A stretch of 64,000 bases of DNA from an uncultured Pseudomonadales bacterium (GCA_964457085.1 CAYWDM010000004.1:8131-72130); one strand, 5' to 3'; positions 512 to 63,705 are shown, counted from the first letter of the stretch. Made by a program: numbers and translations. Notes: generated by a model from the sequence alone, not told the origin.

Positions 512-1567
512 ATGCAACACAACGAAATAGTCACCCTACTTGGTCAAGAAGCTGAATCCTTGCTGGGACATGTCTGTGAAAAAGTTCCCAAAACTCTAAT
601 CCACTCACCCAGTCCCTTTCATGTTGAGAATACATTTCGTGAGTCTGATAGAAGTGAAGCAGTTATCGGTAATCTGCATCGTCTGTATGGCCATGGCAAA
701 TTAGCTGATTCTGGATACCTCTCAATTTTTCCTGTTGATCAGGGAATTGAACACACTGCTGGTTTTTCATTTGCTCAAAATCCTGCATATTTTGACCCTG
801 AAACCATTGTACGTATGGCGGTTGAGGCCGAATGCAACGCAGTGGCCTCGACGCTGGGAGTACTTGGATTGATGTCAAAGCGATATGCGGAGCACATTCC
901 CTTTATCGTCAAAATCAATCACAACGAACTACTCACCTATCCAAACAAGCACAATCAAGTGCTGTTCTCCAGCGTTCAGCGTGCATACGAGTTAGGGGCT
1001 GCCGGAATTGGGGCTACCATTTATTTTGGTTCTGAGAAATCAAACAAACAAATAATTGAGATTGCCCAAGCTTTTGAGACAGCACACCGTCGAGGTATGT
1101 TTACTGTCCTCTGGTGCTATCCTCGAAACGATGCTTTTGCGACTGAAGGGCAAGATTTCAATGAGGCTGGGGACATTACCAGTCAAGCAATTCATCTTGG
1201 AGTCACCATTGAGGCTGACATCATCAAACAAAAATTACCGGTCGGCAATGGCGGTTTTAAAGCCCTAAAGTTCGCTAAGTATAGTGACGCAATGTACAAC
1301 CTTGCAACCGACCACCCAATCGATTTGGTACGTTACCAGGTGCTCAATAGTTATGCAGGTCGAATCAGCATGATTAACAGTGGTGGTGAATCTGAAGGTG
1401 AAAGTGATCTGCGAGAAGCTATCAGAACTGCAGTCATCAACAAGCGCGGTGGTGGTGCCGGATTAATCATGGGACGGAAAGTGTTTAAAAAACCCTTTGA
1501 TGAGGGCATCTCGCTACTGCGTGCAGTCCAAAGTGTTTACCTGGACAGCGAAATTACCGTAGCCTAG
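512..1567 (+). CDS. fbaB: class I fructose-bisphosphate aldolase (DhnA/FbaB type)
   Basis: Near colinear similarity to E. coli FbaB throughout (SIFPVDQGIEH, FIVKINHNE, GATIYFGSE, PIDLVRYQ, VINKRGGGAGLIMGRKVFKK, VYLDSEITVA). The track ORF starts at GTG 482; alignment to FbaB supports ATG 512. Confidence 0.85.
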   Translation: MQHNEIVTLLGQEAESLLGHVCEKVPKTLIHSPSPFHVENTFRESDRSEAVIGNLHRLYGHGKLADSGYLSIFPVDQGIEHTAGFSFAQNPAYFDPETIVRMAVEAECNAVASTLGVLGLMSKRYAEHIPFIVKINHNELLTYPNKHNQVLFSSVQRAYELGAAGIGATIYFGSEKSNKQIIEIAQAFETAHRRGMFTVLWCYPRNDAFATEGQDFNEAGDITSQAIHLGVTIEADIIKQKLPVGNGGFKALKFAKYSDAMYNLATDHPIDLVRYQVLNSYAGRISMINSGGESEGESDLREAIRTAVINKRGGGAGLIMGRKVFKKPFDEGISLLRAVQSVYLDSEITVA

Positions 1568-4701: not shown

Positions 4702-6378
4702 CTATAGCAGCACTTCACTAGCCATAACCGCCAGTTCCCCACGTACTTGAGTCTGTGGTGGTGCGGCCGAGACAGCTTCCACACTAAGTGTCTCAGTCAC
4801 CAATCCGCTAGAGGGAAGTTTGGTATTACTTTCACTCAACTGGAATGTAAATGGCAATATGCCACCGGCTACTTCCCTACAACAAGCCTCAAGAATAGTT
4901 AAAAACTTCGGCTGTTGTAGTTGCTCTTGATGAAATTTGTAATACACACCGATAGTAAGTGCATTTTCAGACAAGGCACTTGGTTGACTCGATCGCAATA
5001 AAGCAGCTAAGCCAGAGTTTTTAAGTGCCACTGCGGAAACAAATTGTTGCCATCTAGCAATTAAATCTTTGGGATCAATCTGACTCTCACTTTGAGTACA
5101 AGTAATTGGCTGCACAACCAACTCCTCAGCTGCTAAGTCAATTTCTGCAACCAACACTGCATTTGCTTGAGATTCAGCAAATGCGTCATCCGGAGTCAAT
5201 TCATCTTCATCCTCATCCTGAACTTCTATCACTTTTTTTAGTTTTTCTTTTGAAACAACTTGACCCTGAGATCCTGCCTTCAATTTAGCTCGTGAAATTA
5301 AATCCAGCAATGCAATTTCTAAAGTTAACAAAGAAATTGGGCTCGTTTGAAACAAATTTGCAGCTAATAACTGTTGTAATAAAAATTGGTTTATAGCCAC
5401 TGGTCTATCAGCATCTCCAGGCACTACTTTCAGTCCAATTAGTAGATCAGCATGCAACATACCAAACAATGATCGGTATGCTTTCGACTGATCAGTATTT
5501 GATGAGCGAAGTGTTGCGATTAATTGCATCACTTGTTTTTCATCTTTTTTAATCACCGCTGCAATAATATTTTTCAGTTGTTGCTGTACAGAACCACCAG
5601 TGATGCGCTCAATCAGAGCATCGTCGAGTCGATTTTGATTGATGCTGAGTTCAAGTAGCTTGACGCCATCTCGAAAGCTGCCATCAGCAGCCTCAATAAT
5701 CGGTGCTAATTGTTCCAGCTTATATTGCACTTTTTCAGAATCAAGAATACGAACCAATGTCTTAGAAAGTTCAGACAAACTGGCTTTCTGGAACTGCACC
5801 AATGCACATCTAGAAGCAATCGTAGCCGGAATTTTATGCAACTCGGTCGTAGCTAAAATAAAAACACAATGAGCTGGGGGTTCTTCAAGTAGCTTCAGAA
5901 AAGCATTGAATGCAGCACCTGACATCATGTGTACTTCGTCAAGGATATAGACAGCCATCTTGCCCTCTTGAGGCAACAGTGAAGCCCGCTCTTTAAGTTG
6001 ACGGATGTCATCAACAAGCCCATGGCTAGCCGCATCAATTTCTTGGACCGCAAATGACTGACCAAAACAGATACGCTTGGTCATGATTGAATCTGGATCT
6101 GGTTCTACAAATGCAATTCGTTTTTCCTTGCTGGTAGGTTGTAAAAATAAACGATCTACAGCATCAGCATTTTTCTCATCATTGAGCAAAGCTGCTAAAA
6201 TTCTCGAGGCAGAAGTTTTACCTGTTCCCTTGGGACCGGCAAACAAGAGTGCTTGAGGAATATTAGCCTCCTCCATCATCGACAACAATGTCAATCTGAC
6301 AGATTCTAGCTGTAGATCTTTGACCTGCCTGGGACGATAGGTGCGATACCATGACATATTAATCGTGATGATACCCAA
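4702..6378 (-). CDS. dnaX: DNA polymerase III subunit gamma/tau
   Basis: Walker A GPKGTGKTSASRILA, DEVHM box, clamp-loader sensor motifs. Likely true start at MSWYRTYRP (coordinate 6357). Confidence 0.9.
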   Translation of the reverse strand: MGIITINMSWYRTYRPRQVKDLQLESVRLTLLSMMEEANIPQALLFAGPKGTGKTSASRILAALLNDEKNADAVDRLFLQPTSKEKRIAFVEPDPDSIMTKRICFGQSFAVQEIDAASHGLVDDIRQLKERASLLPQEGKMAVYILDEVHMMSGAAFNAFLKLLEEPPAHCVFILATTELHKIPATIASRCALVQFQKASLSELSKTLVRILDSEKVQYKLEQLAPIIEAADGSFRDGVKLLELSINQNRLDDALIERITGGSVQQQLKNIIAAVIKKDEKQVMQLIATLRSSNTDQSKAYRSLFGMLHADLLIGLKVVPGDADRPVAINQFLLQQLLAANLFQTSPISLLTLEIALLDLISRAKLKAGSQGQVVSKEKLKKVIEVQDEDEDELTPDDAFAESQANAVLVAEIDLAAEELVVQPITCTQSESQIDPKDLIARWQQFVSAVALKNSGLAALLRSSQPSALSENALTIGVYYKFHQEQLQQPKFLTILEACCREVAGGILPFTFQLSESNTKLPSSGLVTETLSVEAVSAAPPQTQVRGELAVMASEVLL

Positions 6379-34030: not shown

Positions 34031-35128
34031 CTAGAAAGTCTTTGAAACAATACGGACATTGTTCCCAGAGTTCGTTTCTGGAATTGCCTTGTCGCTGTTG
34101 ACCTCGATTTTGAATTCAGTTGTGCCTGCTGCCAAAGTCATTTGATAGCCATCGGCAGTCACTTTACTTTCGCCAACACCCACCCAAGTCTTTGAGACGC
34201 TCTTTTTTACCTCAGTACCACCAATGTACCATTTCACTTCGTAATCCACCTGTTTATCTTGACCCAAATTTTTAATTACAGGTTTTACGACCACTTTCTG
34301 TCCAGCAAGGGGTAAAGCAATTTTTTCACCGGTTTCTTGACTATAAAACTCGATGTCCGCTGCTTCTAGATCTGAACGAGTTCCTAAAACCGTTGTATTT
34401 TTTGTTTTTGAATTATCAGCACTGTTTGACTCGCCCAAGACATTGTCTGGGTCAGCAAAATAACCAACTGCAAAATCTCCCTCCTTGAGTACCACACCAC
34501 TATAAACCAGACTATTTACATCGTCATATACAGCTTCGGCAGCTGCTTTGAGCGAACCGCGTTCATTCTTTCCAGCCAAACTACCTTGAATTTTCCAGTA
34601 ACTCACAAAGTTTTTTGCATCGGCAGTGCCGGTATTTTTTAACCGAGCTCGAAGTGAGATATGTTGACCAGCGTATGCGGTTGAGTCAATTTTAGATCCA
34701 TTTTGAGGATCTTCAAAGAAAATCTCTTCTACATTCAGGTTTGACAGCCCAGTCGCTTTAGGTGTGGGAGAAATAGCTGCGGTAGGAGTAGGTCCAAAAG
34801 TTGGACTAGGCACTCTGGTTGGTGAAGGAAATGGAGTGCTGGTAGCCACGGGCTTTGTGGTCGGTTCTTTTAGTAAGGTGCGAGTAGGTTCAGCAACTGC
34901 TATTTTCGGGTCTGTTTTTGGTGAATCTGAAGCATCGCGAGTCATCAAAAATAATCCCAGAGGTATTGCAAGCATCACCACAACAACACCTATCATCATC
35001 CATGGCGGAGTTTGAGTTGATTTCGGTCGTGACATAATAACTGCTTTTTCCAATAGCTCATCACCTGAAATGTCAGGAAGTTGACGTGGTAATTGTGTAG
35101 GTAACTGATTTGGGAATTGGTCTGACAT
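34031..35128 (-). CDS. surface/secreted protein with Pro-rich linker and CARDB-like beta-sandwich repeats
   Basis: TM anchor, PT-rich spacer (PFPSPTRVPSPTFGPTPT), two repeats resembling CARDB (ARLKNTGTADAKNF.. / IKNLGQDKQVDYEV..). Confidence 0.4.
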   Translation of the reverse strand: MSDQFPNQLPTQLPRQLPDISGDELLEKAVIMSRPKSTQTPPWMMIGVVVVMLAIPLGLFLMTRDASDSPKTDPKIAVAEPTRTLLKEPTTKPVATSTPFPSPTRVPSPTFGPTPTAAISPTPKATGLSNLNVEEIFFEDPQNGSKIDSTAYAGQHISLRARLKNTGTADAKNFVSYWKIQGSLAGKNERGSLKAAAEAVYDDVNSLVYSGVVLKEGDFAVGYFADPDNVLGESNSADNSKTKNTTVLGTRSDLEAADIEFYSQETGEKIALPLAGQKVVVKPVIKNLGQDKQVDYEVKWYIGGTEVKKSVSKTWVGVGESKVTADGYQMTLAAGTTEFKIEVNSDKAIPETNSGNNVRIVSKTF

Positions 35129-35180
35129 ACTATACCAATAGTATCACACCAAATCGATTGATCACATCTGGATATGTCAG

Positions 35181-35507
35181 TTATTGTTCTAAACTAATTG
35201 GTTGACTCAAATCCAACTCAAGTGTCTCTAAATCTGACTGCATTACCAACATTTCTTTATTCAGGTTGTTCTCTGAAATACGAGTAGGCACATAATACCC
35301 ACCTCCCAGTACTAGAAAAAATAAGATAACTGAAAAGATCGCTGTTCTAATCGGAGTTCCAAAAAACCATGTCAAATCTCGTAAAAAAATCTCTAAAATA
35401 TTCGGTCGTGCTGCCTCAGCCACTGATTCCCAAACCCGACGCTTGGCTACAGCCATGTGTGGAGGCTCTATCTGACTGATAATCCAATTTTGCAAAATCA
35501 TATTCAT
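35181..35507 (-). CDS. putative anti-sigma factor (single-pass membrane protein)
   Basis: Immediately downstream of the ECF sigma gene on the same strand; one TM helix (AIFSVILFFLVLGGGYY). Assigned from position only. Confidence 0.3.
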   Translation of the reverse strand: MNMILQNWIISQIEPPHMAVAKRRVWESVAEAARPNILEIFLRDLTWFFGTPIRTAIFSVILFFLVLGGGYYVPTRISENNLNKEMLVMQSDLETLELDLSQPISLEQ

Positions 35508-35543
35508 GTATATAGTAGCAACCTAGTTACAAGTAACACTAAA

Positions 35544-36101
35544 TTATTTTTTAAAATATTTTGAGAGTACTTTGAGTGATCGATGACAGATTACTTTTAC
35601 ATTGCTAATGGTAATTCGAAGTTTTTTTGCGACCTCAACTTGAGAGTACCCATGCAGATAGTGCAAAGCAACCACCTGTCTGTCACGATCGGAAAGTACT
35701 TGAAGCATTTTCCCAATGCTCTGACGTTTCAGTTCCTGATTATCCTCTGACAACCATTCATCGCTATCGCCTATACCTTGGATAAACTCATCATAAGCAA
35801 CCACCGGTAGTCGATATTTAACCCTCAGCCAAGCAATGATTCTTCGTTTGGCAAGTACATACAGCCAATTCCGGAAACTTGATTTACCCGTAAAGGTATG
35901 TAGGGATCCCATCATGGCCACTAGTATGTCTTGAGTCAGATCCTCAGCATCTAGTGAGCGGTTGGTTTGCCAATAACAAAAACGATAGATGGGTTCGAAA
36001 TACTTTTCGTACAAGACTGCGAGTGCTTGTTGATTACCTTTTTTAACTAACTCAACCAACTCAATGTCGTTGTCAATTTGTTGAGATTCTATTTTCTTCA
36101 T
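35544..36101 (-). CDS. ECF-subfamily RNA polymerase sigma-70 factor
   Basis: Region 2 (YEKYFEPIYRFCYW...DLTQDILVAMM) and region 4 HTH (LSDRDRQVVALHYLHGYSQVEVAKKL). Confidence 0.8.
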   Translation of the reverse strand: MKKIESQQIDNDIELVELVKKGNQQALAVLYEKYFEPIYRFCYWQTNRSLDAEDLTQDILVAMMGSLHTFTGKSSFRNWLYVLAKRRIIAWLRVKYRLPVVAYDEFIQGIGDSDEWLSEDNQELKRQSIGKMLQVLSDRDRQVVALHYLHGYSQVEVAKKLRITISNVKVICHRSLKVLSKYFKK

Positions 36102-52835: not shown

Positions 52836-53891
52836 TTACTGAGTAAAACACTCCATGTGTTCCTTTTTTAGGTTTTGAAAAATTTCCTGAGCAATAGTAG
52901 CATGACCTTGAACGCTTGGATGTCCATCAGCTACGATTTCATTCCTTTCAATAATATTGGGAACTGTAGCAGCGAAAGTAACGTTGTGATACCTTTTTTT
53001 TAGTTTAGGCCAGGCAAAAAATGTTTCATTTTGAATAAAAGTGAATACCTTCACTTGGTCATGCGGTATCCAAGAGAAGAAATCATCATAATACGTTGTC
53101 AACACACTCGTGTAAAACACGTCATGTGAGTATAATTGGTTTACTCGCATATGAGCATCATCCGAACACTGTCTAGCCGCCACTGCTTTTGAGTCATCGT
53201 CTGGGATCGACTCCACCTTTTCTTTTAGACATTGGTCAATAATGGGAGTCATGACTTCGTTATATCGAAAAAATCCAGTTGAACTTTCAAACCAAATCAC
53301 TAAATCTGGGTTATATTTCCTACCGGTTCTTTTGAATCGTTCAACGATATAAGGCACGTCATACCCAGCTACTCCTAGGTTCAAAACTTCAAAACGCTGC
53401 CACTTGCAGTCAGAGGTCATTTCCTTATTTAATGTGGCTTCCAACTGCTTGGGCCAACTATCAGAAGTGTTAACGTACAGTCCGTACGTAAAAGAGTCAC
53501 CGAGCGTTATGATCCTAAAAACATTAGGGCTTTTCTCGACGTTATGATTATTTTCATCATTTAAACCATCATCATTTATAGTATACCGAGCGGAATATGG
53601 TAACCAACTTGGGTGGTCTTCATATTGATTCCCAGGAGCTGGTTCGTAGTATTGCGAGAATGCCGTGTCAGTCGGAAAAATAAGATTATGCTTTCTGATA
53701 ACAACTGGAGTCACCGCTTCATCCCCCAGTACTCGTCCGTACTTCAGTTTAGTATGGTAGAACCACAGGAGAAAAATACTGCCAACAACAATTTCGATTG
53801 TAACCAAAGTGAACAAAAAGAGGTGCTTTTTGGAGAGGAACTGCTCAGAAGTTGAGTTTGGTGCGAGATGGGACAGAAAATTATCCGGCAT
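52836..53891 (-). CDS. membrane-anchored SGNH/GDSL hydrolase
   Basis: N-terminal TM; block I ITLGDSFTYG, later blocks with DGHP. Confidence 0.6.
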   Translation of the reverse strand: MPDNFLSHLAPNSTSEQFLSKKHLFLFTLVTIEIVVGSIFLLWFYHTKLKYGRVLGDEAVTPVVIRKHNLIFPTDTAFSQYYEPAPGNQYEDHPSWLPYSARYTINDDGLNDENNHNVEKSPNVFRIITLGDSFTYGLYVNTSDSWPKQLEATLNKEMTSDCKWQRFEVLNLGVAGYDVPYIVERFKRTGRKYNPDLVIWFESSTGFFRYNEVMTPIIDQCLKEKVESIPDDDSKAVAARQCSDDAHMRVNQLYSHDVFYTSVLTTYYDDFFSWIPHDQVKVFTFIQNETFFAWPKLKKRYHNVTFAATVPNIIERNEIVADGHPSVQGHATIAQEIFQNLKKEHMECFTQ

Positions 53892-54098
53892 TTTAATAGT
53901 AAGAGCTGTATGTGTCCCATTACTATATATCTACAAGCGAAATATGTAAGGATTGCTTTGCGAAGAGGGCGGAAGGAGAGGTCGCTGAATGCGACATTAG
54001 GCATGCACTCCGTGCTTGCCGGCAGGACCATCTTTCGATAGTCACTCACCACATCCATCAACGCTCGCCAATTCTAGCTTCGCTAGACTGGCGACCGT

Positions 54099-54191
54099 TG
54101 CGGAGCATGTGGGTCTGGAACCCTGTGTCACTATAACACCATGCTTAGTCTAGAGGTGATTATACGAGAAATGAGACAAATGAGACAGTAC
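54099..54191 (+). repeat. copy A of a ~93-nt dispersed direct repeat (tgcggagcatgtgggtctggaaccctgtgtcactataacaccatgctt...gagacaaatgagacagtac)
   Basis: Seen in sequence; about 90 percent identical by eye to copies at 56268 and 60864 (approximate percentage, not computed). Contains an 8-bp hairpin GGAGCAUG...CAUGCUUC enclosing gggt-ctgga-accc. Confidence 0.85.
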
Positions 54192-54291
54192 AGTAAGATC
54201 AAATTTTGATCTCAAACTACGAAATTAACTGGCATCAAGGTATTTTAGGTAACTATAGCCAAATTGTGTCAAAGCATGCCCCGCTCCAGAA

Positions 54292-54630
54292 GTGCTATTG
54301 TATGTGGGTACACCGGTTCGATATACCATTATTCCTAAGTTAGTTAATTCTGGCATTGGGTTGAGTAGTTCAATTATTGGCTTCATAACCAGTGCTGTTG
54401 GACTCTCCGCGCTACAAGTCTGTGGGTTTGGAACACCTATGTGTGGCGCAAGTATTGGACTTAGTCTAATCTCAGCTGTTTTGCCAAACTTTGCTCTACA
54501 GTTTCTCATTAGTCACGGCTTAAGCATTGTGTTGGTGACAATGATTATCCAGCTCATTGGTCTGTACAGCATGAAATGTTTCAAAATCAATCACTTGCAA
54601 GCTTGTGATAATAAGAGTGGAATTGATTGA
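54292..54630 (+). CDS. small hydrophobic membrane protein (uncertain)
   Basis: 112-aa ORF with 3 hydrophobic helices about 100 nt downstream of repeat copy A; a competing 94-aa minus-strand ORF overlaps it. Confidence 0.25.
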   Translation: MLLYVGTPVRYTIIPKLVNSGIGLSSSIIGFITSAVGLSALQVCGFGTPMCGASIGLSLISAVLPNFALQFLISHGLSIVLVTMIIQLIGLYSMKCFKINHLQACDNKSGID

Positions 54631-54634
54631 TTTT

Positions 54635-55318
54635 CTATCTAGCACAGCGCTCAAAAGCAGGTAAGTGCATTTCTTTAGATGCTTTGGCTAGAGAAATGAA
54701 AACAGTTTTAATGTCTTCATACTGAAGTTCTGGAATCATCCTTTGATACAATGCATCGTTATCAATTTCTGCTGTTACTCCAACTTGGCAAACTTCTTGC
54801 AGAGTAGCTGGCAGTGCACCTACTTGAGTTGTGTCTTTAGGAATCTCAACTCCATATTTATCAAACAAAGCTAAGAGCATTGAAATGTGTTGTTCTTCTG
54901 CTCGTGCAATATTGATGAATGGTTTAACTGAGCCAAATTTTGCCATGGTAGCTTGATAAGTCGCTAATGCTTTACGTTCGTCAGCTAAGGCTAGGTTAAG
55001 ATATTCAACAGTTTTCTCGTCTAGCTTGGAAACTGGATAATCAGCATCTTCAGCTAACAAACAGCCATCCATAAGACAATTTTCTTTGTTTACTTCTTGT
55101 GCTGATTGGCTACCGTTCATTCTGCCTTTTCCACCCCCTTGACCACGACCATAACCAAGAGGACCATAATTTTCTGCTACTTGAGTCTCCTGTGATTTTT
55201 GTTTTTGACTTTGGTTTAGCCACTGAAAGGCTACAACTCCCAACAAAAGAATTACAAAAAGCGACAAAATGGGGACAATTGGCAACGAGGACGCTGAGAT
55301 CTGGACAGATTTTTTCAT
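54635..55318 (-). CDS. ferritin-like DUF2202 domain protein, membrane-anchored
   Basis: N-terminal TM; duplicated four-helix ferritin-like half motifs (YLNLALADERKALATYQ and INIARAEEQHISML). Confidence 0.55.
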   Translation of the reverse strand: MKKSVQISASSLPIVPILSLFVILLLGVVAFQWLNQSQKQKSQETQVAENYGPLGYGRGQGGGKGRMNGSQSAQEVNKENCLMDGCLLAEDADYPVSKLDEKTVEYLNLALADERKALATYQATMAKFGSVKPFINIARAEEQHISMLLALFDKYGVEIPKDTTQVGALPATLQEVCQVGVTAEIDNDALYQRMIPELQYEDIKTVFISLAKASKEMHLPAFERCAR

Positions 55319-55333
55319 AAATTCTTTCTCTTT

Positions 55334-56068
55334 TTATTTTGTAAAATATTTATACAACCAACCGAACATACTTTTGGTTTGACTTTCGTTTACAACAGTG
55401 TCCTGTAATTGAGTATTTTGTTCTGTCAAATCCTGAATAGTTTCCTCAAGCATGGCGATATCGCTCTGGTTTGCTAATTGAGTTTTTAATTCAGTAAGTT
55501 GCTCGATACGCAATTGATTTTCTTCAATTTGTTTTTCAACATCCTTCAAAGCTTTATAGTCTGGTCCTATTAGGGACTTTAAAAGACCTTTACGATTTCC
55601 TACTTGATCTAGTTGAGCCTTGACTTGTTCTTGAGCTTGTTTTTGTTGTGTGGCGATTTGCTTAACTTGTTCACCAATACCACCTTTCATGGTTTTATTG
55701 GTTAATAACTCTTCAACCTGATTGGCCACATCACTCATCTTTTCTTCTGCCATGTCGTTGCGAGGAGATTCGTTTTTTGCAATTCCACTACCTACGACAG
55801 TGCTTGTTTCTTCTTTTGTTTCCACTTTAAGTTGTGAATCTTCACCCTGGTTTTTAGTTTCGATTTGATTCTTCACTTGCATTGTTGGTTGAGAAGGAGC
55901 AGTAGTGGTTTTTTGTGTACCAGCGCTAGTGCCTTGACCTGCAGATCCTTGACCGACGGTGTTTCCAGCTCCCCCATCGCTATCGCTGTTTTTTGCAGCT
56001 TGAACAAATGTTACAAGAGATAAAAAAATCACAGTAGCTAAAAAGATTGATAAGTATCTGTTTTTCAT
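55334..56068 (-). CDS. secreted coiled-coil protein
   Basis: Signal peptide (ATVIFLSLVTFVQAA), low-complexity Gly/Thr/Gln region, extended heptad-like Q/E/K-rich C-terminus. Confidence 0.5.
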   Translation of the reverse strand: MKNRYLSIFLATVIFLSLVTFVQAAKNSDSDGGAGNTVGQGSAGQGTSAGTQKTTTAPSQPTMQVKNQIETKNQGEDSQLKVETKEETSTVVGSGIAKNESPRNDMAEEKMSDVANQVEELLTNKTMKGGIGEQVKQIATQQKQAQEQVKAQLDQVGNRKGLLKSLIGPDYKALKDVEKQIEENQLRIEQLTELKTQLANQSDIAMLEETIQDLTEQNTQLQDTVVNESQTKSMFGWLYKYFTK

Positions 56069-56267
56069 AATTTTGCTCCATATTTAATGTTAGTCTTTAT
56101 TTATCTCTTGTGCAAAAGATATTCGCTCAGTTTGTGAGAGTTGCAAACAAAAAAACAACCTGTTACACGGCTGTAGAACCGCAAAATGTTCAAATCAAGG
56201 AAATTTAGCAAGCCCCATCAACCCATTCAGCGGTAATAGAAGGGTCTATCAGGACATTTTCGAAACT

Positions 56268-56360
56268 TGCGGAGCATGTGGGTCTGGAACCCTGTGTCAC
56301 TATAACACCATGCTTCGACTAGAGGTCATTATACGAGAAACGAGACAAATGAGACAGTAC
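56268..56360 (+). repeat. copy B of the ~93-nt direct repeat
   Basis: Seen in sequence; ~150 nt upstream of the 1090-aa gene. Confidence 0.85.
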
Positions 56361-56508
56361 GACAACTATCGATTTTACGATAGTCCCATCAAGTTTTCAA
56401 TTTAATCTCATCATCATCCTCAGTCTCTTGTTTTTAATTCATACATTTTTGGCATACCAACTTTTTAAGTGCAACTAATGAATTAAACTGCGAAAAAATT
56501 CCTGTATC

Positions 56509-59500
56509 TTGATTGCTGACACTACCCATGATGTACTACTTGATATGGCATTGTCCGAGCAAATTTTGCACTCAAAACAGCAAGTTAAACAATATGCTGT
56601 TGGAGGTATTAGCCAGTTAAGTCAAATTATCGATGCAGGGGGCCATCTAGACACAACAAGGCCAGATAAACTATCGCAAATTGCTGCTGAAACCAAGCAA
56701 TTCATCTCAGAATACCTTGAAAATGAATCACTCCCAGTGTCGATGAGAAGTGAGGTGTTGTGTGTGCTTAAAACACTGTTGACTATTCCAGCACCCGCTG
56801 ATCAGGTTGCCTACTTACAGAGAATTAGACCGCTACTTGAGGAAGCAGCTGGCAATGAAGTATTGTCAAACAGAAAAAAAGAAGCTGAGAATATCAAGGT
56901 ACATGAGGCAATCACTGGTCTTGAGAATTCAGGACAAAACAGTGAGTATTGCATGATACCACTGATGAATTTCTTAAGTGACACAAAGCGACAAAAACAA
57001 ATTGAACCGTTTGTGACTGACAGTCTGGATACCTGCCTGGAAAAAGAACATGCGACGGCTGCTGCCATTTTTCTAGCTATTCCAGAAAATCAAGTAGGCA
57101 GAGACAAAGAAGTGGCACAATTGCTCGAGACAATCAAAAAAAACAAAAAACGTGCTGAAGACCTTCGCCTATCACCATGGTGGACATACGCAGCCCTGGT
57201 TTTTTTCGCAGATGAAAGAAACAGAAACTTGGATAGTGCACTATTTTCAGACACTGTGGACAGCATTGACGAAACGTGTGAGCGAAAACAACTTGATGAG
57301 AAACTCTCTGAACATATCTGTGCATTTTTGGTACAGAACACCAATATGGAACAATTTTCCCGGTGGTTTGATGCAGTTATTCAAACAAGCTCTGCTTACT
57401 GGGTTGTTCCCAACAATTTTTTTAACCATCCCGATGCCTGGAATGGAAACGAACAGATAGCGATTGAGTTGAGAAAAAAAGCTATTGCAGGTAATCAATG
57501 GGGTGTGTTGATTCAACAATGCACCAATCCGAAAGTTCCAAAGCCGGGAACAGTTGCAGGTGAAGAACAATACGAAAGCAATATCATGGACGAGATTGTT
57601 CGTGATGAGATACGAGGAAGACACGGTAACGTAAATGACGCAGTCATACTGAGATACATGGCACATCCCGAACACCATGTGGATATCTATGATCAGGATA
57701 CTGTCAATCAAACAATAGCTGCAAATCTAGAGGGTGGCACAGATACTGACTATATGGCAGTTGTAGATTTTTTTAATGAATCAAATGTCCAAAACTTTTC
57801 ATCAGCCACAACTGATATGGCAAATAAGGTGGTCAATCGAATCTCTGACCATATGCTCCGTGCCAAATCGCTCGGTTTGCTCAGAACGTATCTAACTGAT
57901 GAAACCTTACCAACTACACTACTAGAAAGTGTGCCCGCAGATTTAGTCATTACGGTCGTGGCATTTAAGCTACTCGGAGTTGACGAAAATGTAGTCAGAT
58001 CTTGGCAACTTGATGAGGAAAACATTACTTCACTTTTACCCAGCCTAATTCACTTAGCCGAGATGCCTGCAAATAGAAACATGTTTGCCGACATTGCTCT
58101 TCCATTCGTGCCTAGAACCAGAGAAAGTGGCAGAAAAGTATTGGTCGAAAAAATAACTCAATGGCTCAATAAATTAGATTTTTTGAATAAAGTTCCCAAG
58201 GAACTTGGTGGTAAAGAACTGGTTGAGGATCACTTAGAGAACATTAAGACATTGCAAAAAGAGCACGCTATCTCTGACGCAACTAACACCATTGATCTCA
58301 CGGTTTTAAGAAAGTTTCAAACAGAGTTGCAGAGCATGGGGGGTCAGTTAGTTGAGAAACTCACTCAACTCATCAGACTTAAAGAAGGCATCTCATACGC
58401 ACAGGTTGAGCAGTTCATTAAGGACTGGAATGGCGATATTTCCTGCGTCATCATCCTCTCCGCCCATTACAGCACCAGCTATGACGATGGTTTGACGTAC
58501 TTAGGACAAAAAATCACCGAAATAATTGAGGGTCAGGCAGAGTCGAATAGATATGATCTCTCCAATCAACTCACCAAACAACAACTGCAACCATTACTGC
58601 GAAACCCAGAAGTAATTGAGCAGGAAAAAGCCATAGCAGTCTGGAAAGATCCAGCGTATAGTTTGAAAATTGAATCAAGCCAAGTAAAAAAAGCTGCTGT
58701 ATCAGACTATGATCTGACACAAAAAGTGTCCGCAGAACTCCGACAAAGAGTTACCACCCAAGGACATTTTCACGCAGAAAAACTGCAAGAATTAATCGTC
58801 GGAAGTACCAGTGTAGAACAAGCCCAAAAGATTACCCAATTGATTACGGCATGTGTCCAAATAAATACTGAACAACCAAAAAACCTCATTGGACAAGTAG
58901 TGCAAGAACTCAAGCAATCATCACTAAGTAAAGAGCGCCAAACACTAATAATGGGTTTGGCACAATTACTACGCGAGATATCCCTTGGAAGAGAGAGCGC
59001 TTCAAATCTAGCCAACACTGCACAAAAACTTGTTGCCAAAATAACGAATGAATGGCCGGAACTAGCAGAAATTGACCTGATTAATCAAGACCTCAAAGTC
59101 TACGTCACCAACGAGTTTGATGCTGCTGATAAAGAATCTGCGCAAGTATCTCGCGCAGAACTATTTGTGTGCTACACCACGGATAATCCCAAGACTCTTC
59201 TGGAAATTGGCCGTTATCCAAACTCCGGTTCATGTCAAAATTATGAGTCGACTGGAAGCTACAACACGGGTTTGCCAGGCTATGTGTTCGATGCGCACAT
59301 CCAAGCAGCATGCATCTCAAGCGTGACACTCCCCGATGTTCTACAAAATAATCCTGAAGCATTAACCAACGCTTCCCTGTCTGACGTAGATCTTAACCTC
59401 GGCACAGCGCAGCTGCGACTCGAAAGTGGTAAAACATTCGCTGTGAAGATATCCAAGCCAATCGCCCGCAAGATGATACTTTTAGCATCCTCAACAAATA

Positions 59501-59781
59501 ACGAGCGTGCAGACATGCCAACTCTACTGGCAGAACCAACATATGCCGACCCAGGAGTAGCAGATGCAACTATTGAGCAGACATTGGAAGATACTATAAC
59601 TGCAAAAAGGAGCGCCCTCTCCAAACAACTTGGACTACCAGTTCTAGGAAATACTGATGCCAAATCAGGTGGCTATATGACAACAATCGCCGGCAGTCAC
59701 AACCCAAATGGTCACTATAATGACCTTGCATTTGGCTTACGTGGTGACAATGGTGAGAAATACGAAATTTCGCTTAAATAA
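56509..59781 (+). CDS. large orphan protein (1090 aa), no recognisable domain
   Basis: Single uninterrupted ORF with protein-like composition, no TM or signal peptide and no motif I can assign; bounded by repeat copies B and C. Confidence 0.6.
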   Translation: MIADTTHDVLLDMALSEQILHSKQQVKQYAVGGISQLSQIIDAGGHLDTTRPDKLSQIAAETKQFISEYLENESLPVSMRSEVLCVLKTLLTIPAPADQVAYLQRIRPLLEEAAGNEVLSNRKKEAENIKVHEAITGLENSGQNSEYCMIPLMNFLSDTKRQKQIEPFVTDSLDTCLEKEHATAAAIFLAIPENQVGRDKEVAQLLETIKKNKKRAEDLRLSPWWTYAALVFFADERNRNLDSALFSDTVDSIDETCERKQLDEKLSEHICAFLVQNTNMEQFSRWFDAVIQTSSAYWVVPNNFFNHPDAWNGNEQIAIELRKKAIAGNQWGVLIQQCTNPKVPKPGTVAGEEQYESNIMDEIVRDEIRGRHGNVNDAVILRYMAHPEHHVDIYDQDTVNQTIAANLEGGTDTDYMAVVDFFNESNVQNFSSATTDMANKVVNRISDHMLRAKSLGLLRTYLTDETLPTTLLESVPADLVITVVAFKLLGVDENVVRSWQLDEENITSLLPSLIHLAEMPANRNMFADIALPFVPRTRESGRKVLVEKITQWLNKLDFLNKVPKELGGKELVEDHLENIKTLQKEHAISDATNTIDLTVLRKFQTELQSMGGQLVEKLTQLIRLKEGISYAQVEQFIKDWNGDISCVIILSAHYSTSYDDGLTYLGQKITEIIEGQAESNRYDLSNQLTKQQLQPLLRNPEVIEQEKAIAVWKDPAYSLKIESSQVKKAAVSDYDLTQKVSAELRQRVTTQGHFHAEKLQELIVGSTSVEQAQKITQLITACVQINTEQPKNLIGQVVQELKQSSLSKERQTLIMGLAQLLREISLGRESASNLANTAQKLVAKITNEWPELAEIDLINQDLKVYVTNEFDAADKESAQVSRAELFVCYTTDNPKTLLEIGRYPNSGSCQNYESTGSYNTGLPGYVFDAHIQAACISSVTLPDVLQNNPEALTNASLSDVDLNLGTAQLRLESGKTFAVKISKPIARKMILLASSTNNERADMPTLLAEPTYADPGVADATIEQTLEDTITAKRSALSKQLGLPVLGNTDAKSGGYMTTIAGSHNPNGHYNDLAFGLRGDNGEKYEISLK

Positions 59782-59842
59782 GAATCCACGGCTACTCTTA
59801 CCTCCATACAAGGCACAGTTGTGTTTCATCTGCTATTCCCTA

Positions 59843-60292
59843 CTATGTCTGTGGAGCAGGTGCCAATATTGCCTTAAAATGAATTGTCAGCACCTCAATT
59901 AACTCATCTACCGTAGACACTTTATCCTCAGCAACCAACAACGTCAAATCAGATGATATTTCTTCGGTGAAAACATAGCCATTATTAAGCAAAAAAGTGC
60001 CCATCAGAATGACTGACATTCTTTTGTTACCATTAAAGAAAGCCTGTCCTTGAGCAATTAGTACGTAATAACAAACTGCAGTCTGGATGCAATCATATGA
60101 CAGCATCTCTGATCTATTGCGAACAGATCCAAGAATAGATTCAAGCGTGCCTTGATACCGAGAAGTAAATGGAGGGAGGGGCTCAACTTCTGAAGTTTGA
60201 AGCTGCAGAAACTTTCTGAATCTCTCGTAGATACTCTCGCACTCTTGGATATTTAACCATGTCCACTGACTTTTGAATTTCACCTCTGTCAT
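59843..60292 (-). CDS. Doc/Fic-family (death-on-curing-like) protein with non-canonical Fic motif (Q instead of H)
   Basis: VLIAQGQAFFNGNKRMSVILMGTFLLNNG aligns with the Doc core IAKNHPFVDGNKRTALAAALVFLYLNG, but the catalytic His of HxFx(D/N)GNKR is replaced by Gln. Confidence 0.65.
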   Translation of the reverse strand: MTEVKFKSQWTWLNIQECESIYERFRKFLQLQTSEVEPLPPFTSRYQGTLESILGSVRNRSEMLSYDCIQTAVCYYVLIAQGQAFFNGNKRMSVILMGTFLLNNGYVFTEEISSDLTLLVAEDKVSTVDELIEVLTIHFKAILAPAPQT

Positions 60293-60431
60293 ATGAGTCT
60301 AATTCCAGCAATGTTTTGGCGTGTTTAGTCATCACAGCATCGGCATTACATTCGATATTACTTCGCTTGTGGACTGTGAATAGATTTCGAAGAATAGTTA
60401 GTAATTTTTTCATTATTTTCAATAGTTCCAA
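60183..60431 (-). CDS. small ORF upstream of / overlapping the Doc-like gene (possible antitoxin)
   Basis: 82-aa ORF whose last ~36 codons overlap the Doc-like start in another frame; basic alpha-helical N-terminus. Assigned by position only. Confidence 0.25.
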   Translation of the reverse strand: MELLKIMKKLLTILRNLFTVHKRSNIECNADAVMTKHAKTLLELDSYDRGEIQKSVDMVKYPRVREYLREIQKVSAASNFRS

Positions 60432-60863
60432 AGTGTGGTTGGAACTTTATTTTTTAGTATAGCTGTTTAACCAACATCTATACAACTCATATTGAGTTTG
60501 TTGGTGAATATGTGCTGTTTATTATATCAAAAGCAATCATTTTAATTAAAAATACAATAAATTTCATGGAAGGAAAGAGAGGCGCCTGCGGTGCATTAGG
60601 CAGGTGTTTTGTAGTTCCACACCCAACCAATAAAATAAATTCACTCGCCGGCAGGACTCTTCAATGGCTTCACCTCAACCTCGCCATCAGTTCTGCCCTC
60701 CTGCTCCGCTACGCGAAGCGAGCGGTTAGAGCGGAAGGAGAGGGACTTACCTTTCCAGGCTCAAATTTTAAATATTAGATTGGTATTCGCTTGGTGAGGT
60801 ACCATGCTTTCTCGTCCATTTCATACTGTTTTCCAACACCTGCTCCGCAGGATTGAAAAACAG

Positions 60864-60956
60864 TGCGGAGCATGTGGGTCTGGAACCCTGTGTCACTATA
60901 ACACCATGCTTCGACTAGGGGTAATTGTACACAAAGTGAGACAAATGAGACAGCAC
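60864..60956 (+). repeat. copy C of the ~93-nt direct repeat
   Basis: Seen in sequence; 40 nt beyond the stop of the P-type ATPase gene. Preceded by an inverted copy of its own first 13 nt (cacctgctccgca ... tgcggagcatgtg). Confidence 0.85.
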
Positions 60957-60996
60957 ATTGAGCTGTTTCTGTAAATAGTTTTAGTGATATCCTGTT

Positions 60997-63705
60997 TTAG
61001 GATCGACGAATACGGGCAAGTGCTAACTTAACCAGCTCTGCCGTGACAAAAATCAAACTAGAAATAAGCAGCAATGAAGTAAACTCAGACATGCTTAAAG
61101 AACCAAACTTCAGTGAAGATTGCAGGGGAGGAAACCACAACGCAGACAACAATAATCCAAATGAAACTACAAATGCCGCAACTACTGGTTTGTTACTAAA
61201 GAAACCTAAAGTGATAACTGATTTTTTCAAGGACCGTAGACTTAGCATATTTAACAACTGACTGCATGAAAGTATCACAAATAAGGCTGCTTGTGCCTTT
61301 CCTACCCCAACCGGCAAGAAGTAATGGAATACACTCAATCCTAAAACAGTTGTCACCAAAGTGACTATTCCAATCAGTGGTAAAACTTTAAAATTTAAGA
61401 TGTTTTCTGCTGGCGAACGAGGAGGATGCTTCATCGACTCATCTCGAGAAGGTTCTAAAGATAATGCGAAGTCGGTTATTCCACCTGTGATCACGTTCAA
61501 CCACAAGATTTGTAGTGGTAATAAAGGCAATGGGTAACCCAACAACAATGCCATTAATAAAGTCACGCTTTCAGACACATTGGTCATAATTAAGAAAAAA
61601 CTGGTACGACGCAAATTATTAAATTGAGTGCGTCCTTCTTTAACCGCCGCTACAATTGATGCAAAATTATCATCTGCTAAAACGATTTTGCTCGCCTCAC
61701 GCGCTACCTCAGTACCACTGATGCCCATCGAGATTCCGACATCTGCTTTTTTAAGTGCTGGCGCATCATTCACCCCGTCTCCCGTCATTGCCACTACTGC
61801 CCCACCAGCTTGAAAAACTCCAGCTACTTTCATTTTCATTTCGGGAGTTAGCCGTGCCAATATTTGAGCCTGAGACAATACTAACGTCAGCTCTTGATCG
61901 CTTTTATTTTCAAGATCGCTCTGTGTTGCTACCAATCCAGCATCGTAGTCGGCTGTTACTAAACCAATCTCTTTTGCGATTGCCAAAGCGGTTTGAGGGT
62001 GATCTCCGGTTGCCATCACAATTCTAATCCCTGCTTGTTTAGCTTCTTGTAAAGCATCACTTACTTCCGGTCGAGGAGGATCATATAAACCTACCAAACC
62101 CACGAACACGCCGTTCTCAGTGGGCACGGTGTCTGAGGACAATGACACAGCAGTTTTCACTGGAAAACTTGCCAGGGCAACCACGCGAAGTCCAGATTTG
62201 GACAATGTAGTTATCTGTGCCTCAAACATGGCTTTTTCTGAGGCATCTATTTCTCGCTGAGTAGTGCCAAACTGTGCTTGTGAACAACGATCTAACACAC
62301 CTTCAGGAGCACCTAGTATAAATATCTCCTTATACTGAGATGTTTGAACCAATGATGCTCTCAATCGCAGCTGTTGCTGGAAAGGCAGATTATCAAGCAC
62401 TGTTGGCTGATGTATTGGCTCTAAAGCGTGAAATCCAGCCTTATGAGCTAATAGAAACAGAGCTTTTTCAGTCGGATCACCATAGATGGTAGAGAAAGCA
62501 ATTTTCTCCTGATCTGAAACTCTTATTTGGTGACAAACACCAGCGATAGCTATCAACTTATTCAGGTGAAAATTATCATGCAGAAGCAAAGGCTCTGTTT
62601 GCTGATTAAAAGCCGCTTCCTCACTAGAGTTGAGCGAACTAACATCAATTAATGGCTGTCCCGGCAGGTAAATTGTGCGTGCTGACATTATGTTTTGCGT
62701 CAGTGTGCCTGTTTTATCGGTTACAATTATCGACACAACACCCAATGTTTCAGTCGCAGATAATTTACGCACAATGGCATTTTTTCTAGCCATACGCTGC
62801 GCCCCCACCGTCAGCACAATAACTAGAATAATTGGCAACCCTTCTGGAAGAGCTGACACTAATGTTGCAATTGTGTAAATACTAATCTCAGCAAATGAAA
62901 AATTTCTTAGGAAAAACCCCACAAAAAAGGTGATTATGGCACTCACAATCGCAATTGTGCCCATCTGTCGTGACAGCATAGTAATTTTTTGAGAAAAATG
63001 TTCTTGGCCTATTTCAACCGTTTCCAAACTCACTGCAATTCTTCCAAATTGGGTCTCAGCACCGATTGAAGTAATAACCGCTTCAACTGTTCCTTGTGTC
63101 AGCGTCGTTCCCATCCACAGCCTATTAAAGCGCTCAGACAAAACGGCCTGTTCATCTACCAAACCCATTTTCTTTTCTACAGGCTCAGATTCACCAGTCA
63201 GCGTTGCTTCATTGATATAACAATTCCTAGCAGTCATCACATATGCATCAGCAGGAACTTTATCGCCTGCCTGCAGGAGAATGACATCCCCAATAGTTAC
63301 TTGCTCTTGAGTGATTTCAATCGTTTGACTGTTTCGCCGCACCAAAACCCTACTAACCAGCAATTGCTTGAGCGCAGCTACTGATTGCTCAGCTCGGTAT
63401 TCTTGTAGAAACCCCATAATGCCGTTAATAAGTACCATGCCGGCAATCAAAATAGTGTCCAACAAGTGTCCAAATAAAAATGACAAAAGTGCTGCAATAC
63501 TCATTAACACCACCATGGCATTAGCAAATTGTGATAAAAACAACCTCACTACTCGCAATTTCTTACTTTCTGGTAATCGATTGAGACCATGTGCGGCTTG
63601 ACGTTTTTCAACCTCAGCTGTCGTCAAACCGTCCTCAGATGTTTCTAAAAAATCGCAAACCTCAGAATTGGAAAGGTGATGTGCTATTAAAAGTGATTTC
63701 ACCAT
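60997..63705 (-). CDS. P-type cation-transporting ATPase (type II, Ca2+/Mg2+-like)
   Basis: DKTGTLT phosphorylation site, TGDGVNDAPALKKADVG hinge, TGES actuator box, 10 TM helices, 902 aa. Confidence 0.9.
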   Translation of the reverse strand: MVKSLLIAHHLSNSEVCDFLETSEDGLTTAEVEKRQAAHGLNRLPESKKLRVVRLFLSQFANAMVVLMSIAALLSFLFGHLLDTILIAGMVLINGIMGFLQEYRAEQSVAALKQLLVSRVLVRRNSQTIEITQEQVTIGDVILLQAGDKVPADAYVMTARNCYINEATLTGESEPVEKKMGLVDEQAVLSERFNRLWMGTTLTQGTVEAVITSIGAETQFGRIAVSLETVEIGQEHFSQKITMLSRQMGTIAIVSAIITFFVGFFLRNFSFAEISIYTIATLVSALPEGLPIILVIVLTVGAQRMARKNAIVRKLSATETLGVVSIIVTDKTGTLTQNIMSARTIYLPGQPLIDVSSLNSSEEAAFNQQTEPLLLHDNFHLNKLIAIAGVCHQIRVSDQEKIAFSTIYGDPTEKALFLLAHKAGFHALEPIHQPTVLDNLPFQQQLRLRASLVQTSQYKEIFILGAPEGVLDRCSQAQFGTTQREIDASEKAMFEAQITTLSKSGLRVVALASFPVKTAVSLSSDTVPTENGVFVGLVGLYDPPRPEVSDALQEAKQAGIRIVMATGDHPQTALAIAKEIGLVTADYDAGLVATQSDLENKSDQELTLVLSQAQILARLTPEMKMKVAGVFQAGGAVVAMTGDGVNDAPALKKADVGISMGISGTEVAREASKIVLADDNFASIVAAVKEGRTQFNNLRRTSFFLIMTNVSESVTLLMALLLGYPLPLLPLQILWLNVITGGITDFALSLEPSRDESMKHPPRSPAENILNFKVLPLIGIVTLVTTVLGLSVFHYFLPVGVGKAQAALFVILSCSQLLNMLSLRSLKKSVITLGFFSNKPVVAAFVVSFGLLLSALWFPPLQSSLKFGSLSMSEFTSLLLISSLIFVTAELVKLALARIRRS

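Follow-up and report, generated by a model that had tools for sequence, protein, structure and literature searches.

What is the 93-nt direct repeat that stands three times within 7 kb of one bacterial chromosomal region, always on the same strand and always between genes? The window (the whole stretch of DNA that was analyzed) comprises 64,000 nucleotides listed under an uncultured Pseudomonadales bacterium (GCA_964457085.1, CAYWDM010000004.1:8131-72130) and is numbered from its first letter; the repeat lies on its plus strand at 54099-54191 (copy A), 56268-56360 (copy B) and 60864-60956 (copy C). A sequence-only reading of the window had offered three explanations for it, namely a small structured RNA family, an element akin to miniature inverted-repeat transposable elements (MITEs), and attachment (att) sites left by successive insertion of genomic islands. 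The analysis described here reveals a larger non-coding, folded element, within which the 93-nt repeat is the module under the strongest constraint. We tentatively read the repeat as the core of a paralogous family of modular, structured non-coding RNAs of ~130-420 nt with switch-like pairings, an interpretation to which we give somewhat less than an even chance, and with modest confidence we regard the family as common to a few Paceibacterota-type bacteria of the Candidate Phyla Radiation (CPR) and to phage-like contigs.

The repeat as part of a modular element

The three copies align without gaps, and 48 consecutive columns (TGCGGAGCATG...CCATGCTT) are invariant among them; all differences sit outside these columns in the 3' part, where the earlier reading had placed them. 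A 40-nt core pattern with up to three mismatches matches three sites in the window, which are copies A, B and C, and none in 100 shuffled sequences; alignment and pattern scan thus agree on the three near-identical plus-strand copies that had been noticed by eye. Neither a repeat scan nor a covariance model of the 93-nt unit run with its filters off finds a further copy in the 64 kb, in agreement with the earlier remark that nothing comparable occurs elsewhere in it. The covariance-model scores are 119 bits for copy A, 121.7 bits for copy B and 121.6 bits for copy C. Over core and tail, identity is 95.7% between A and B and 96.8% between copy C and a copy in a Candidatus Paceibacterota metagenome-assembled genome (MAG; L003), while copy C shares only ~90% with A and B. 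Copy C ends 40 nt from the stop codon of a P-type ATPase gene, the 3' end of which it had been said to adjoin.

Independent evidence that the repeat is real comes from three Logan assemblies of the same organism that break within the identical core, one contig (L013) ending at 54127, another (L020) spanning 54117-56281 and two others (L001 and L002) ending inside copy C. Open reading frames (ORFs) over the element have negative codon-usage scores, indicative of non-coding sequence, and a protein database search with a chimera of its six-frame translations returned no match. In practical terms, the repeat disrupts short-read assemblies, and it is mosaic enough for automated annotation to place spurious ORFs on it.

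The core of the repeat is a three-way junction, in which helix P1 encloses two hairpins, P2 (GGGU-CUGGA-ACCC) and P3 (GUGU-CACUAUA-ACAC). The stem and the GGGU-CUGGA-ACCC hairpin had both been recognized correctly in the sequence-only reading, but the second enclosed hairpin had been missed. P1 (CGGAGCAUG/CAUGCUUCG) has 9 bp, one of them a G.U pair, and is weakened in copy A; the stem GGAGCAUG/CAUGCUUC reaches 9 bp in copies B and C with a flanking C:G pair, and P1 is shorter in copy A because this C is replaced by A. Conservation extends upstream of the 93 nt in all three copies (53957-54098 for A, 56232-56267 for B, and 60567-60863, with insertions, for C); the 93 nt are a genuine repeat, but they make up no more than the 3' module of a mosaic element that measures ~130-420 nt. 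Between copy A and L003 the similarity continues for ~140 nt further upstream (84% over 227 nt) and defines a 5' domain, Block 1, in which a purine strand (GGCGGAAGGAGAGG), hairpin 1, AUUAGGCA, hairpin 2, GCCGGCAGGAC and a pyrimidine strand follow one another; a long hairpin (LH) then adjoins P1. In copy C, Block 1 is diverged and contains an insertion, and this copy also has an LH of its own and pieces of another unit; copy B, which lacks both Block 1 and LH, carries instead a 36-nt segment, M1, that is found twice in L003. The affinities of the modules are mosaic, with A closest to B and C to L003 in core and tail, and A closest to L003 in Block 1. The modules in the window are as follows.

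53957-54037, plus strand: Block 1 of copy A, in the order given above and closed by the pyrimidine strand CAUCUUUC; 84% identical to L003, with long invariant blocks.
53981-53995, plus strand: hairpin 1 of copy A, GUCGC-UGAAU-GCGAC.
54000-54020, plus strand: hairpin 2 of copy A, within Block 1.
54059-54100, plus strand: LH of copy A, adjoining P1; variable in sequence among copies, with its pairing kept.
54099-54191, plus strand: core of copy A, with P1 (CGGAGCAUG/CAUGCUUAG), P2, P3, a linker containing ATTATA, and the GAGACAAATGAGACAG tail.
56232-56267, plus strand: M1 of copy B (GGTAATAGAAGGGTCTATCAGGACATTTTCGAAACT), common to two L003 sites and replacing Block 1 and LH.
56268-56360, plus strand: core, linker and tail of copy B, the 93-nt unit.
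60567-60666, plus strand: diverged Block 1 of copy C, with GGAAGGAAAGAGAGG, hairpin 1 as GCGCC-UGC-GGUGC (compensated), AUUAGGCA, an expanded hairpin 2 and GCCGGCAGGAC.
60731-60811, plus strand: pieces of another unit within region C, GCGGAAGGAGAGG...CCUUUCC (60731-60756) and ACCAUGCUUUC (60801-60811).
60825-60864, plus strand: LH of copy C, 18 bp, the 5' arm of which (CACCUGCUCCGCA) is antisense to the 5' strand of P1 (UGCGGAGCAUGUG).
60864-60956, plus strand: core, linker and tail of copy C, 96.8% identical to the L003 copy and ~90% to A and B.

Homologues and selection on the fold

Among the other 185,579 GTDB species genomes, only that of L003 contains an exact 21-mer of the core, and this MAG has the element alone in common with the window; the 48 invariant nucleotides are present in four copies from these two organisms. 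L003 holds several element sites (L3a, L3b and L3c) and a diverged junction in which P2 is kept as GGCU-UGGA-GGCC. Truncated forms are found in both genomes, copy B being without Block 1, L3b without the core, and L3c reduced to the tail and TTTAGCC. A scan of IMG/VR for the tail motif, followed by the covariance model, identified two diverged 93-nt units, on contigs L042 and L047. L042 (1-14480) is phage-like, with genes for a terminase, a ParB-methylase, a ribonucleotide reductase and a NUDIX protein. Within this contig, an exact direct repeat of 9,117 bp points to a concatemer or a long terminal redundancy; as the contig's two element copies lie inside this repeat, they are counted as one locus. 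In L047 the element is flanked by genes for a type I restriction R subunit, LexA, SMODS/AGS_C (CBASS-like), DUF2130 and DUF2779 proteins. This contig is labelled viral; DUF2130 and DUF2779 genes also adjoin each other in a CPR locus (L006/L007), and L047 may be a chromosomal defense island rather than a virus. The known members thus number six, four of them nearly identical. The blocks TGCGGAGCA, GGTCTGGAACC, AATTRTAY and AATGRGACAAATGRGACA are kept in all of them, and AGTGTCTT follows the tail in L3a, L042 and L047.

Further searches did not enlarge the family. In JGI metagenomes, the only matches to a relaxed junction pattern were two chance ones in GC-rich coding DNA; four IMG/VR scans (with the core, the relaxed junction, Block 1 and one tail pattern) gave none, and a last one recovered L042 and L047 again, its new covariance-model matches (L051, L052, L066 and L070) being coding sequence. 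Searches of phage and plasmid collections by blastn were also negative. Rfam 15 has no match to the whole window at gathering thresholds, and at E values up to 10 the interval 53800-61300 gives only chance matches, for example to eukaryotic miRNA and snoRNA families (E 0.45-9.8), so that the repeat belongs to no described family; the earlier reading, too, had not recognized in it any described repeat class. In the data within reach, the family is rare and its known distribution very narrow.

The IMG/VR scans also brought to light tandem arrays or clusters of the 9-nt word TGTCTCATT, some of them in both orientations (L022, L023, L028, L029, L030, L032, L035, L036 and L046). A 19-nt pattern had 26 matches there. 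The arrays are present in many unrelated viral contigs, giant-virus MAGs included, and look like iterons or operator arrays.

The homologues permit the fold to be assessed by its substitutions. Three of the five pairs of hairpin 1 are changed on both sides, with 100% of the cells paired, as are six of the 19 pairs of LH, in which 88% of the cells are paired when read on the plus strand and 91% on the minus strand, versus ~30% in slid controls. Folding of LH and core together has z-scores of -4 to -6 relative to shuffled sequence. The two boxes of the tail vary in step with an internal box: GAGACA, present twice, is combined with UGUGUCA in the window copies and with UGUCUCA in L042, and GGGACA, also twice, with UGUCCCA in L047, where both tail boxes and the internal box have changed together. 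The minimum-energy fold of L047 pairs the internal box with box 1, and box 2 with a downstream AGUGUCUU by means of G.U pairs, after which UUUU follows. In copy C, 12 of 13 nt of the LH 5' arm are antisense to the 5' strand of P1, and the LH apices of copy A and L003 are partly so; together with the box pairings, this implies several mutually exclusive pairings within the element. Judged from these comparisons, four helices or pairings carry compensatory changes, which show that a single-stranded fold is under selection. The conservation of blocks beside divergent linkers and LH points to long-term selection on this fold and not to recent spread, which would give uniform similarity.

Modular RNA, regulatory cassette or mobile DNA

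Of the explanations first offered, a small structured RNA family fits best, given the compensated helices, the conservation in blocks with variable linkers and the lack of an Rfam match. Read on the plus strand, a unit would begin with an optional domain, either M1 or the two-hairpin Block 1 clamped by its purine:pyrimidine helix, and continue through an optional LH, the apex of which is complementary to the segment that follows, into the invariant three-way junction with its CUGGA loop on P2. From there the unit would run through an unpaired linker rich in A and G and a pair of GAGACA boxes to a terminal stem-loop. The internal UGUCNCA box, in or next to P3, could pair with either GAGACA box, while the terminal hairpin would form if the second GAGACA box paired instead with a GUGUCUU further downstream; these mutually exclusive folds would provide the logic of an attenuator or switch. 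The copies in the window would have arisen by duplication of units and recombination between them, which would account for their mosaic pattern; they would not be integration scars, and their flanking of 'cargo' genes would be incidental. The repeat, its modular extension, the homologues, the covarying pairings and the lack of mobility genes are shown, whereas transcription, its strand, the promoters, the switch and any target are inferred; seed-target or guide-like matches of the variable segments in the window are only chance 11-13-mers.

Transcription from the plus strand is slightly favored. Wobble pairs that are valid only on this strand comprise the invariant G.U of P1 in the four close copies, the G.U pairs of P1 in L047, and others in hairpin 1 of copy C, in the terminal hairpin of L042 and L047 and in the purine:pyrimidine helix. 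In A, C and L042 the conserved 5' boundary is preceded at ~7 nt by a TAnnnT hexamer that is a candidate plus-strand promoter, the unpaired segments are A/G-rich on the plus strand, and the terminal hairpin of L047 is followed by UUUU. The candidate signals that border the copies in the window are the following.

53943-53948, plus strand: TATGTA, a -10-like hexamer with TTACTA 17 nt upstream, ~7 nt before the 5' boundary of copy A; candidate promoter.
54196-54212, plus strand: small hairpin AGAUCAAAUUUUGAUCU, 4 nt 3' of the copy A tail.
56145-56174, minus strand: intrinsic-terminator-like site, ACAGCC..GGUUGU then UUUUUUUGUUU, between copy B and the start of the coiled-coil gene.
56366-56383, plus strand: small hairpin CUAUCG-AUUUUA-CGAUAG after the copy B tail; its loop overlaps a minus-strand promoter-like TTGAAA-17-TAAAAT (56400-56372).
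60553-60558, plus strand: TACAAT, 8 nt upstream of Block 1 of copy C.
60950-60966, plus strand: hairpin ACAGC-ACAUUGA-GCUGU, formed in sequence from the end of the copy C tail onward, then UUUCUGU.

A number of observations weigh against an RNA read from the plus strand, and most of these also bear on the main rival proposal, which we consider doubtful, that the repeat is an intergenic cassette on the minus strand combining terminator, promoter and leader. A small hairpin and the U-rich TGTCTCATT-TGTCTCATT tract would end the upstream gene; the TGTCTCATT pair may also provide direct-repeat regulator sites overlapping the -35 region; TATAAT or TACAAT would be the -10 element; the junction and downstream hairpins would form a 5' leader or small RNA before the next minus-strand gene; and the TGTCNCA boxes would be protein-binding sites. 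The linker indeed reads TATAAT or TACAAT on the minus strand in 6/6 homologues, this TAYAAT being kept within an otherwise variable segment. LH and core are 4-8 kcal/mol more stable on the minus strand, the G.U pairs of LH are valid only there, and the terminal hairpins of A, B and L042 lack a U-tract on the plus strand. At four or five loci the tail lies 25-45 nt past the stop codon of an upstream minus-strand gene, among them copy C (the ATPase), L3a, L047 (DUF2130) and a site in L003 that consists of the tail only, and a co-oriented minus-strand gene is found downstream wherever that flank is known (A, B, C, L3a and L042), the start codon of the NUDIX gene of L042 being 30 nt past the core. 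The tail-only site, at L003 5886-5910, is followed by a -10-like box (5886-5920); the tail motif without the core also occurs in L040, and a site acting at the DNA level fits these occurrences equally well. A good intrinsic terminator of the minus strand follows copy B (56174-56145), with a 6-bp GC-containing stem and then T7GTTT; it lies in a divergent intergenic region with no minus-strand protein gene upstream, which implies a short minus-strand transcript starting in or near copy B. Arrays of TGTCTCATT are common in IMG/VR contigs, and the joint change of the three boxes in L047 fits a regulator that co-evolves with its operators. Two further points count against the RNA interpretation: L042 and L047 have lost P3 and the inner pairs of P1, and with six members, four of them nearly identical, the statistics of covariation are thin.

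The cassette, in turn, has difficulties of its own. Its -35 match is poor (CTGTCT), and the hairpins upstream of the tail, given their poor U-tracts, make weak terminators. The L047 hairpin has 4-5 bp on the minus strand versus 8 bp with G.U pairs on the plus strand, and reading the minus strand produces A.C mismatches in hairpin 1 of copy C and in P1 of L047. The GDSL and coiled-coil genes have promoter-like sites of their own close to their start codons, and the argument from orientation is statistically weak, with three divergent regions and p ~0.25. Moreover, a transcription start past the -10 element would leave the covarying tail boxes outside the RNA, so that their covariation would need an explanation in protein-DNA contacts.

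A plus-strand terminator-like hairpin (AGTTCCAA..TTGGAACT, then TTATTTTTT) was also observed just upstream of region C, at 60424-60456, where it overlaps the start of an 82-aa ORF upstream of doc; no nearby plus-strand gene ends there.

Mobile or recombinogenic DNA is, in our estimate, an unlikely origin for the repeat. It would be a non-autonomous element with asymmetric ends (5' GGCTAAAAGGAC...GAGACAGTAC 3'). A transposase or recombinase encoded at another locus would recognize its hairpins in single-stranded DNA, and the element would insert beside gene-end hairpins, its copies becoming truncated as they decay. Mosaicism, nesting and truncation are seen among the copies (B, L3b and L3c), copy C is nearer to the L003 copy than to A or B although the flanking genes are unrelated, all copies in a region have one orientation, and a variable hairpin lies a few nt from the conserved 3' end in most of them. 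Homologues occur on a phage-like contig and on a defense-island-like contig. In L003 the element boundary adjoins a 5'-truncated IS1595/ISXO2-type DDE transposase gene (798-1202, plus strand; PF12762 positions 81-153, E 4.5e-11), the remnant beginning exactly at the end of M1. Truncated and nested copies, with one closer to the copy of another organism, indicate that recombination and horizontal exchange clearly occurred.

The hallmarks of transposition are nevertheless absent. The ends GGCTAAAAGGAC... and ...GAGACAGTAC are not mutual inverted copies, and no copy is bordered by a pair of inverted repeats; no direct duplication of a target site is seen beside A, B, C, L3a, L3b, L042 or L047; and neither end of the element has a conserved target motif, the 5' flanks AAAGT, GAATA and TCAGC being different. 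Pfam scans of essentially all ORFs in the 64 kb detected no integrase, recombinase, transposase (TnpA and DEDD types included), reverse transcriptase, TnpB or Cas protein. The Pfam content of the window (aminoacyl-tRNA synthetases, DnaG, GlmS, glycosyltransferases and an ECF sigma factor) is that of an ordinary CPR chromosomal region. Three copies in 64 kb, all within 7 kb, one other GTDB genome and chance matches in JGI make a small population for mobile DNA, and the very uneven divergence with compensatory changes speaks for long-term selection and not for recent copying. An intact IS1595-family insertion sequence was rejected as the source, since only the truncated remnant in L003 was found and the window has none; an IS1595 inverted repeat (GGGGCTTGC...) common to region B and L003 is at chance level. 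The comparison with MITEs accordingly keeps the mosaic and truncated copies, the transposase remnant and the phage-like contigs in its favor, and is weakly supported for want of terminal inverted repeats, target-site duplications and a conserved insertion target.

Very improbable is the remaining proposal, that the copies are attL/attR hybrids dating from the site-specific insertion of two islands, one after the other, at the 3' end of an RNA gene: same-orientation direct repeats with an identical 48-nt stretch and distal differences, the best-conserved 5' domain in the leftmost copy, and accessory-looking genes in between (a Doc toxin, DUF2202 and a large protein of unknown function) are as expected for it, but the window has no integrase or recombinase, no tRNA or tmRNA gene according to ARAGORN and a uniform GC content across the segment, L042 and L047 are single copies at ordinary intergenic positions, and copy C, with its own diverged 5' domain and LH, and copy B, with its own M1, are not bare 3' fragments.

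Known systems, neighboring genes and significance

The RNA interpretation invites comparison with several known systems. Attenuators and the expression platforms of riboswitches, with their alternative 1:2, 2:3 and 3:4 hairpins, resemble the element in that a folded domain precedes mutually exclusive box pairings, the apex of LH is complementary to the 5' strand of P1, and the terminal hairpin is sometimes followed by U residues; the element differs in junctions of 0-1 nt with no obvious ligand pocket, in U-tracts that are mostly missing, and in having neither a conserved leader peptide nor an Rfam match. A co-oriented downstream gene is present on the plus strand at only half of the loci, and the canonical terminator occurs only after copy B, on the minus strand. 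Multi-copy small-RNA families occur as tandem or clustered paralogues, for example LhrC1-5, Qrr and the NsiR1 arrays. They share with the element several intergenic paralogues of the same orientation within a few kb, a candidate promoter and 3' hairpin for each copy, and a conserved core with variable flanks, whereas the units described here are much larger and modular, and are spaced by kilobases with genes between them. Pneumococcal BOX (boxA-boxB-boxC) and the enterobacterial ERIC and REP sequences are modular intergenic repeats, likewise mosaics of optional modules with strong predicted structure and no transposase within the element. Unlike these, the present element has a very low copy number, is conserved across organisms and phage-like contigs with 48 nt invariant, and is without terminal inverted repeats, while its compensatory substitutions point to selection on the fold. 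The palindrome-associated transposable elements (PATEs) of IS200/IS605 and the omega-RNA of TnpB have comparable asymmetric ends, subterminal hairpins, a sharp 3' boundary, a single orientation and a structured RNA of 100-300 nt; here, however, there is no Y1_Tnp or OrfB match and no conserved tetra- or pentanucleotide target at the left end, and the sequence past the 3' end consists of hairpins, is not guide-like and has no matches elsewhere in the window.

Most other candidates were rejected. Integron cassettes are unlikely on account of the missing GTTRRRY/RYYYAAC pair (the closest sequence being ATTAGGC) and IntI, and the inter-repeat blocks, of 2.2 and 4.6 kb, contain genes in both orientations. 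For the bridge RNA of IS110 or the seekRNA of IS1111 there is no DEDD transposase, and the near-identical RNA copies have unrelated flanks; for the template and variable repeats of a diversity-generating retroelement there is no reverse transcriptase, and the substitutions are of mixed types. An ECF-sigma promoter (GGAAC/GAAAC boxes) has the wrong spacing and boxes that are not conserved. Xer/dif sites, the Alu domain of the signal recognition particle, RNase P, 6S RNA, a tRNA-like fold and group I or II introns did not fit, by eye and by Rfam. In a check for CsrB/RsmZ-like sequence, GGA was found at 24 per kb on the plus strand of the element and 10.5 per kb on its minus strand, versus 9-12 per kb in the window, with ~5 sites per unit, one of them in the conserved P2 loop CUGGA; a gene for CsrA was not seen within the 64 kb. 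At 54416-54462 a loose structural scan alone pointed to a fourth, diverged junction, which lies in possibly coding sequence, was not recovered by the covariance model and is treated as chance.

Short ORFs and words recur around the element. A 12-codon plus-strand ORF after a Shine-Dalgarno-like AGAGGUGAU is present in A (54173-54212), C (60935-60975) and L3a (L003 ~580-625, minus strand), with the predicted peptides MRQMRQYSKIKF, VRQMRQHIELFL and VRRMRQYMGTVS, of equal length despite unrelated downstream sequence. Coding for such a small peptide, (M/V)R(Q/R)MRQ..., was rejected; copy B has ACG at the start position and a later AUG that gives a longer ORF, the sequences are unrelated past the first residues, and codon scores are negative. 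The 8-9-nt words CACTCACCA, ATCCATCA and CGCTCGCC lie upstream of the core in copy A (54038-54069) and in L047 (10360-10400, minus strand), on the same strand and in reversed order.

The genes between and beside the repeats had been described as cargo partitioned by them, which holds by position only: the loci of ATPase relatives (65-75% identity) and of GDSL relatives (41-42%) have neither the element nor synteny, and the best GDSL homologue is 44% identical. The 1090-aa protein (56509-59781, plus strand) is no orphan, as it had been called, since an exhaustive HMMER search finds 95 related cluster representatives; 28 of these are below 1e-30, mostly 1000-1200 aa long, and its last ~200 residues match the C-termini of proteins of up to 3000 aa. 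It has no Pfam or NCBIfam family match. An identical database entry of 1078 aa suggests that the ORF probably starts at Met13, at ~56545. The Doc-like ORF (59843-60431, minus strand) has 149 aa and matches TIGR01550 at E 5e-9; it and the overlapping 82-aa ORF upstream match consecutive parts of one PADLOC model, PDC-S23, and the two may be a single frameshifted gene and not a toxin-antitoxin pair. At 54225-54630, ORFs of 94 aa (minus strand) and 112 aa (plus strand, hydrophobic) overlap on opposite strands, with weakly positive codon usage for both (0.09 and 0.125 bits per codon, respectively); the gene caller used for Logan picked the minus-strand ORF. Further away, at 34031-36101 on the minus strand, the gene for an ECF-type sigma factor precedes that for a CARDB-domain protein, a possible sigma/anti-sigma pair, and no link to the repeat was found.

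The genomes of CPR bacteria (Patescibacteria) are small and little understood, and descriptions of non-coding RNAs from them are very few. With its 48 nucleotides invariant between two organisms, its supported helices and a version on a phage-like contig, the element offers a concrete candidate for a regulatory RNA or cassette of lineage-specific type, and it could mark exchange between CPR hosts and their phages. In a bolder form, which we think unlikely, it would represent a new class of switch-type regulatory RNA shared by CPR bacteria (Paceibacterota) and phages, in which a three-way-junction sensor acts on duplicated GAGACA boxes toggling between two folds, and which phages or recombination move from genome to genome; if this were true, accessory genes of the host and genes of phages would be placed under one common signal.

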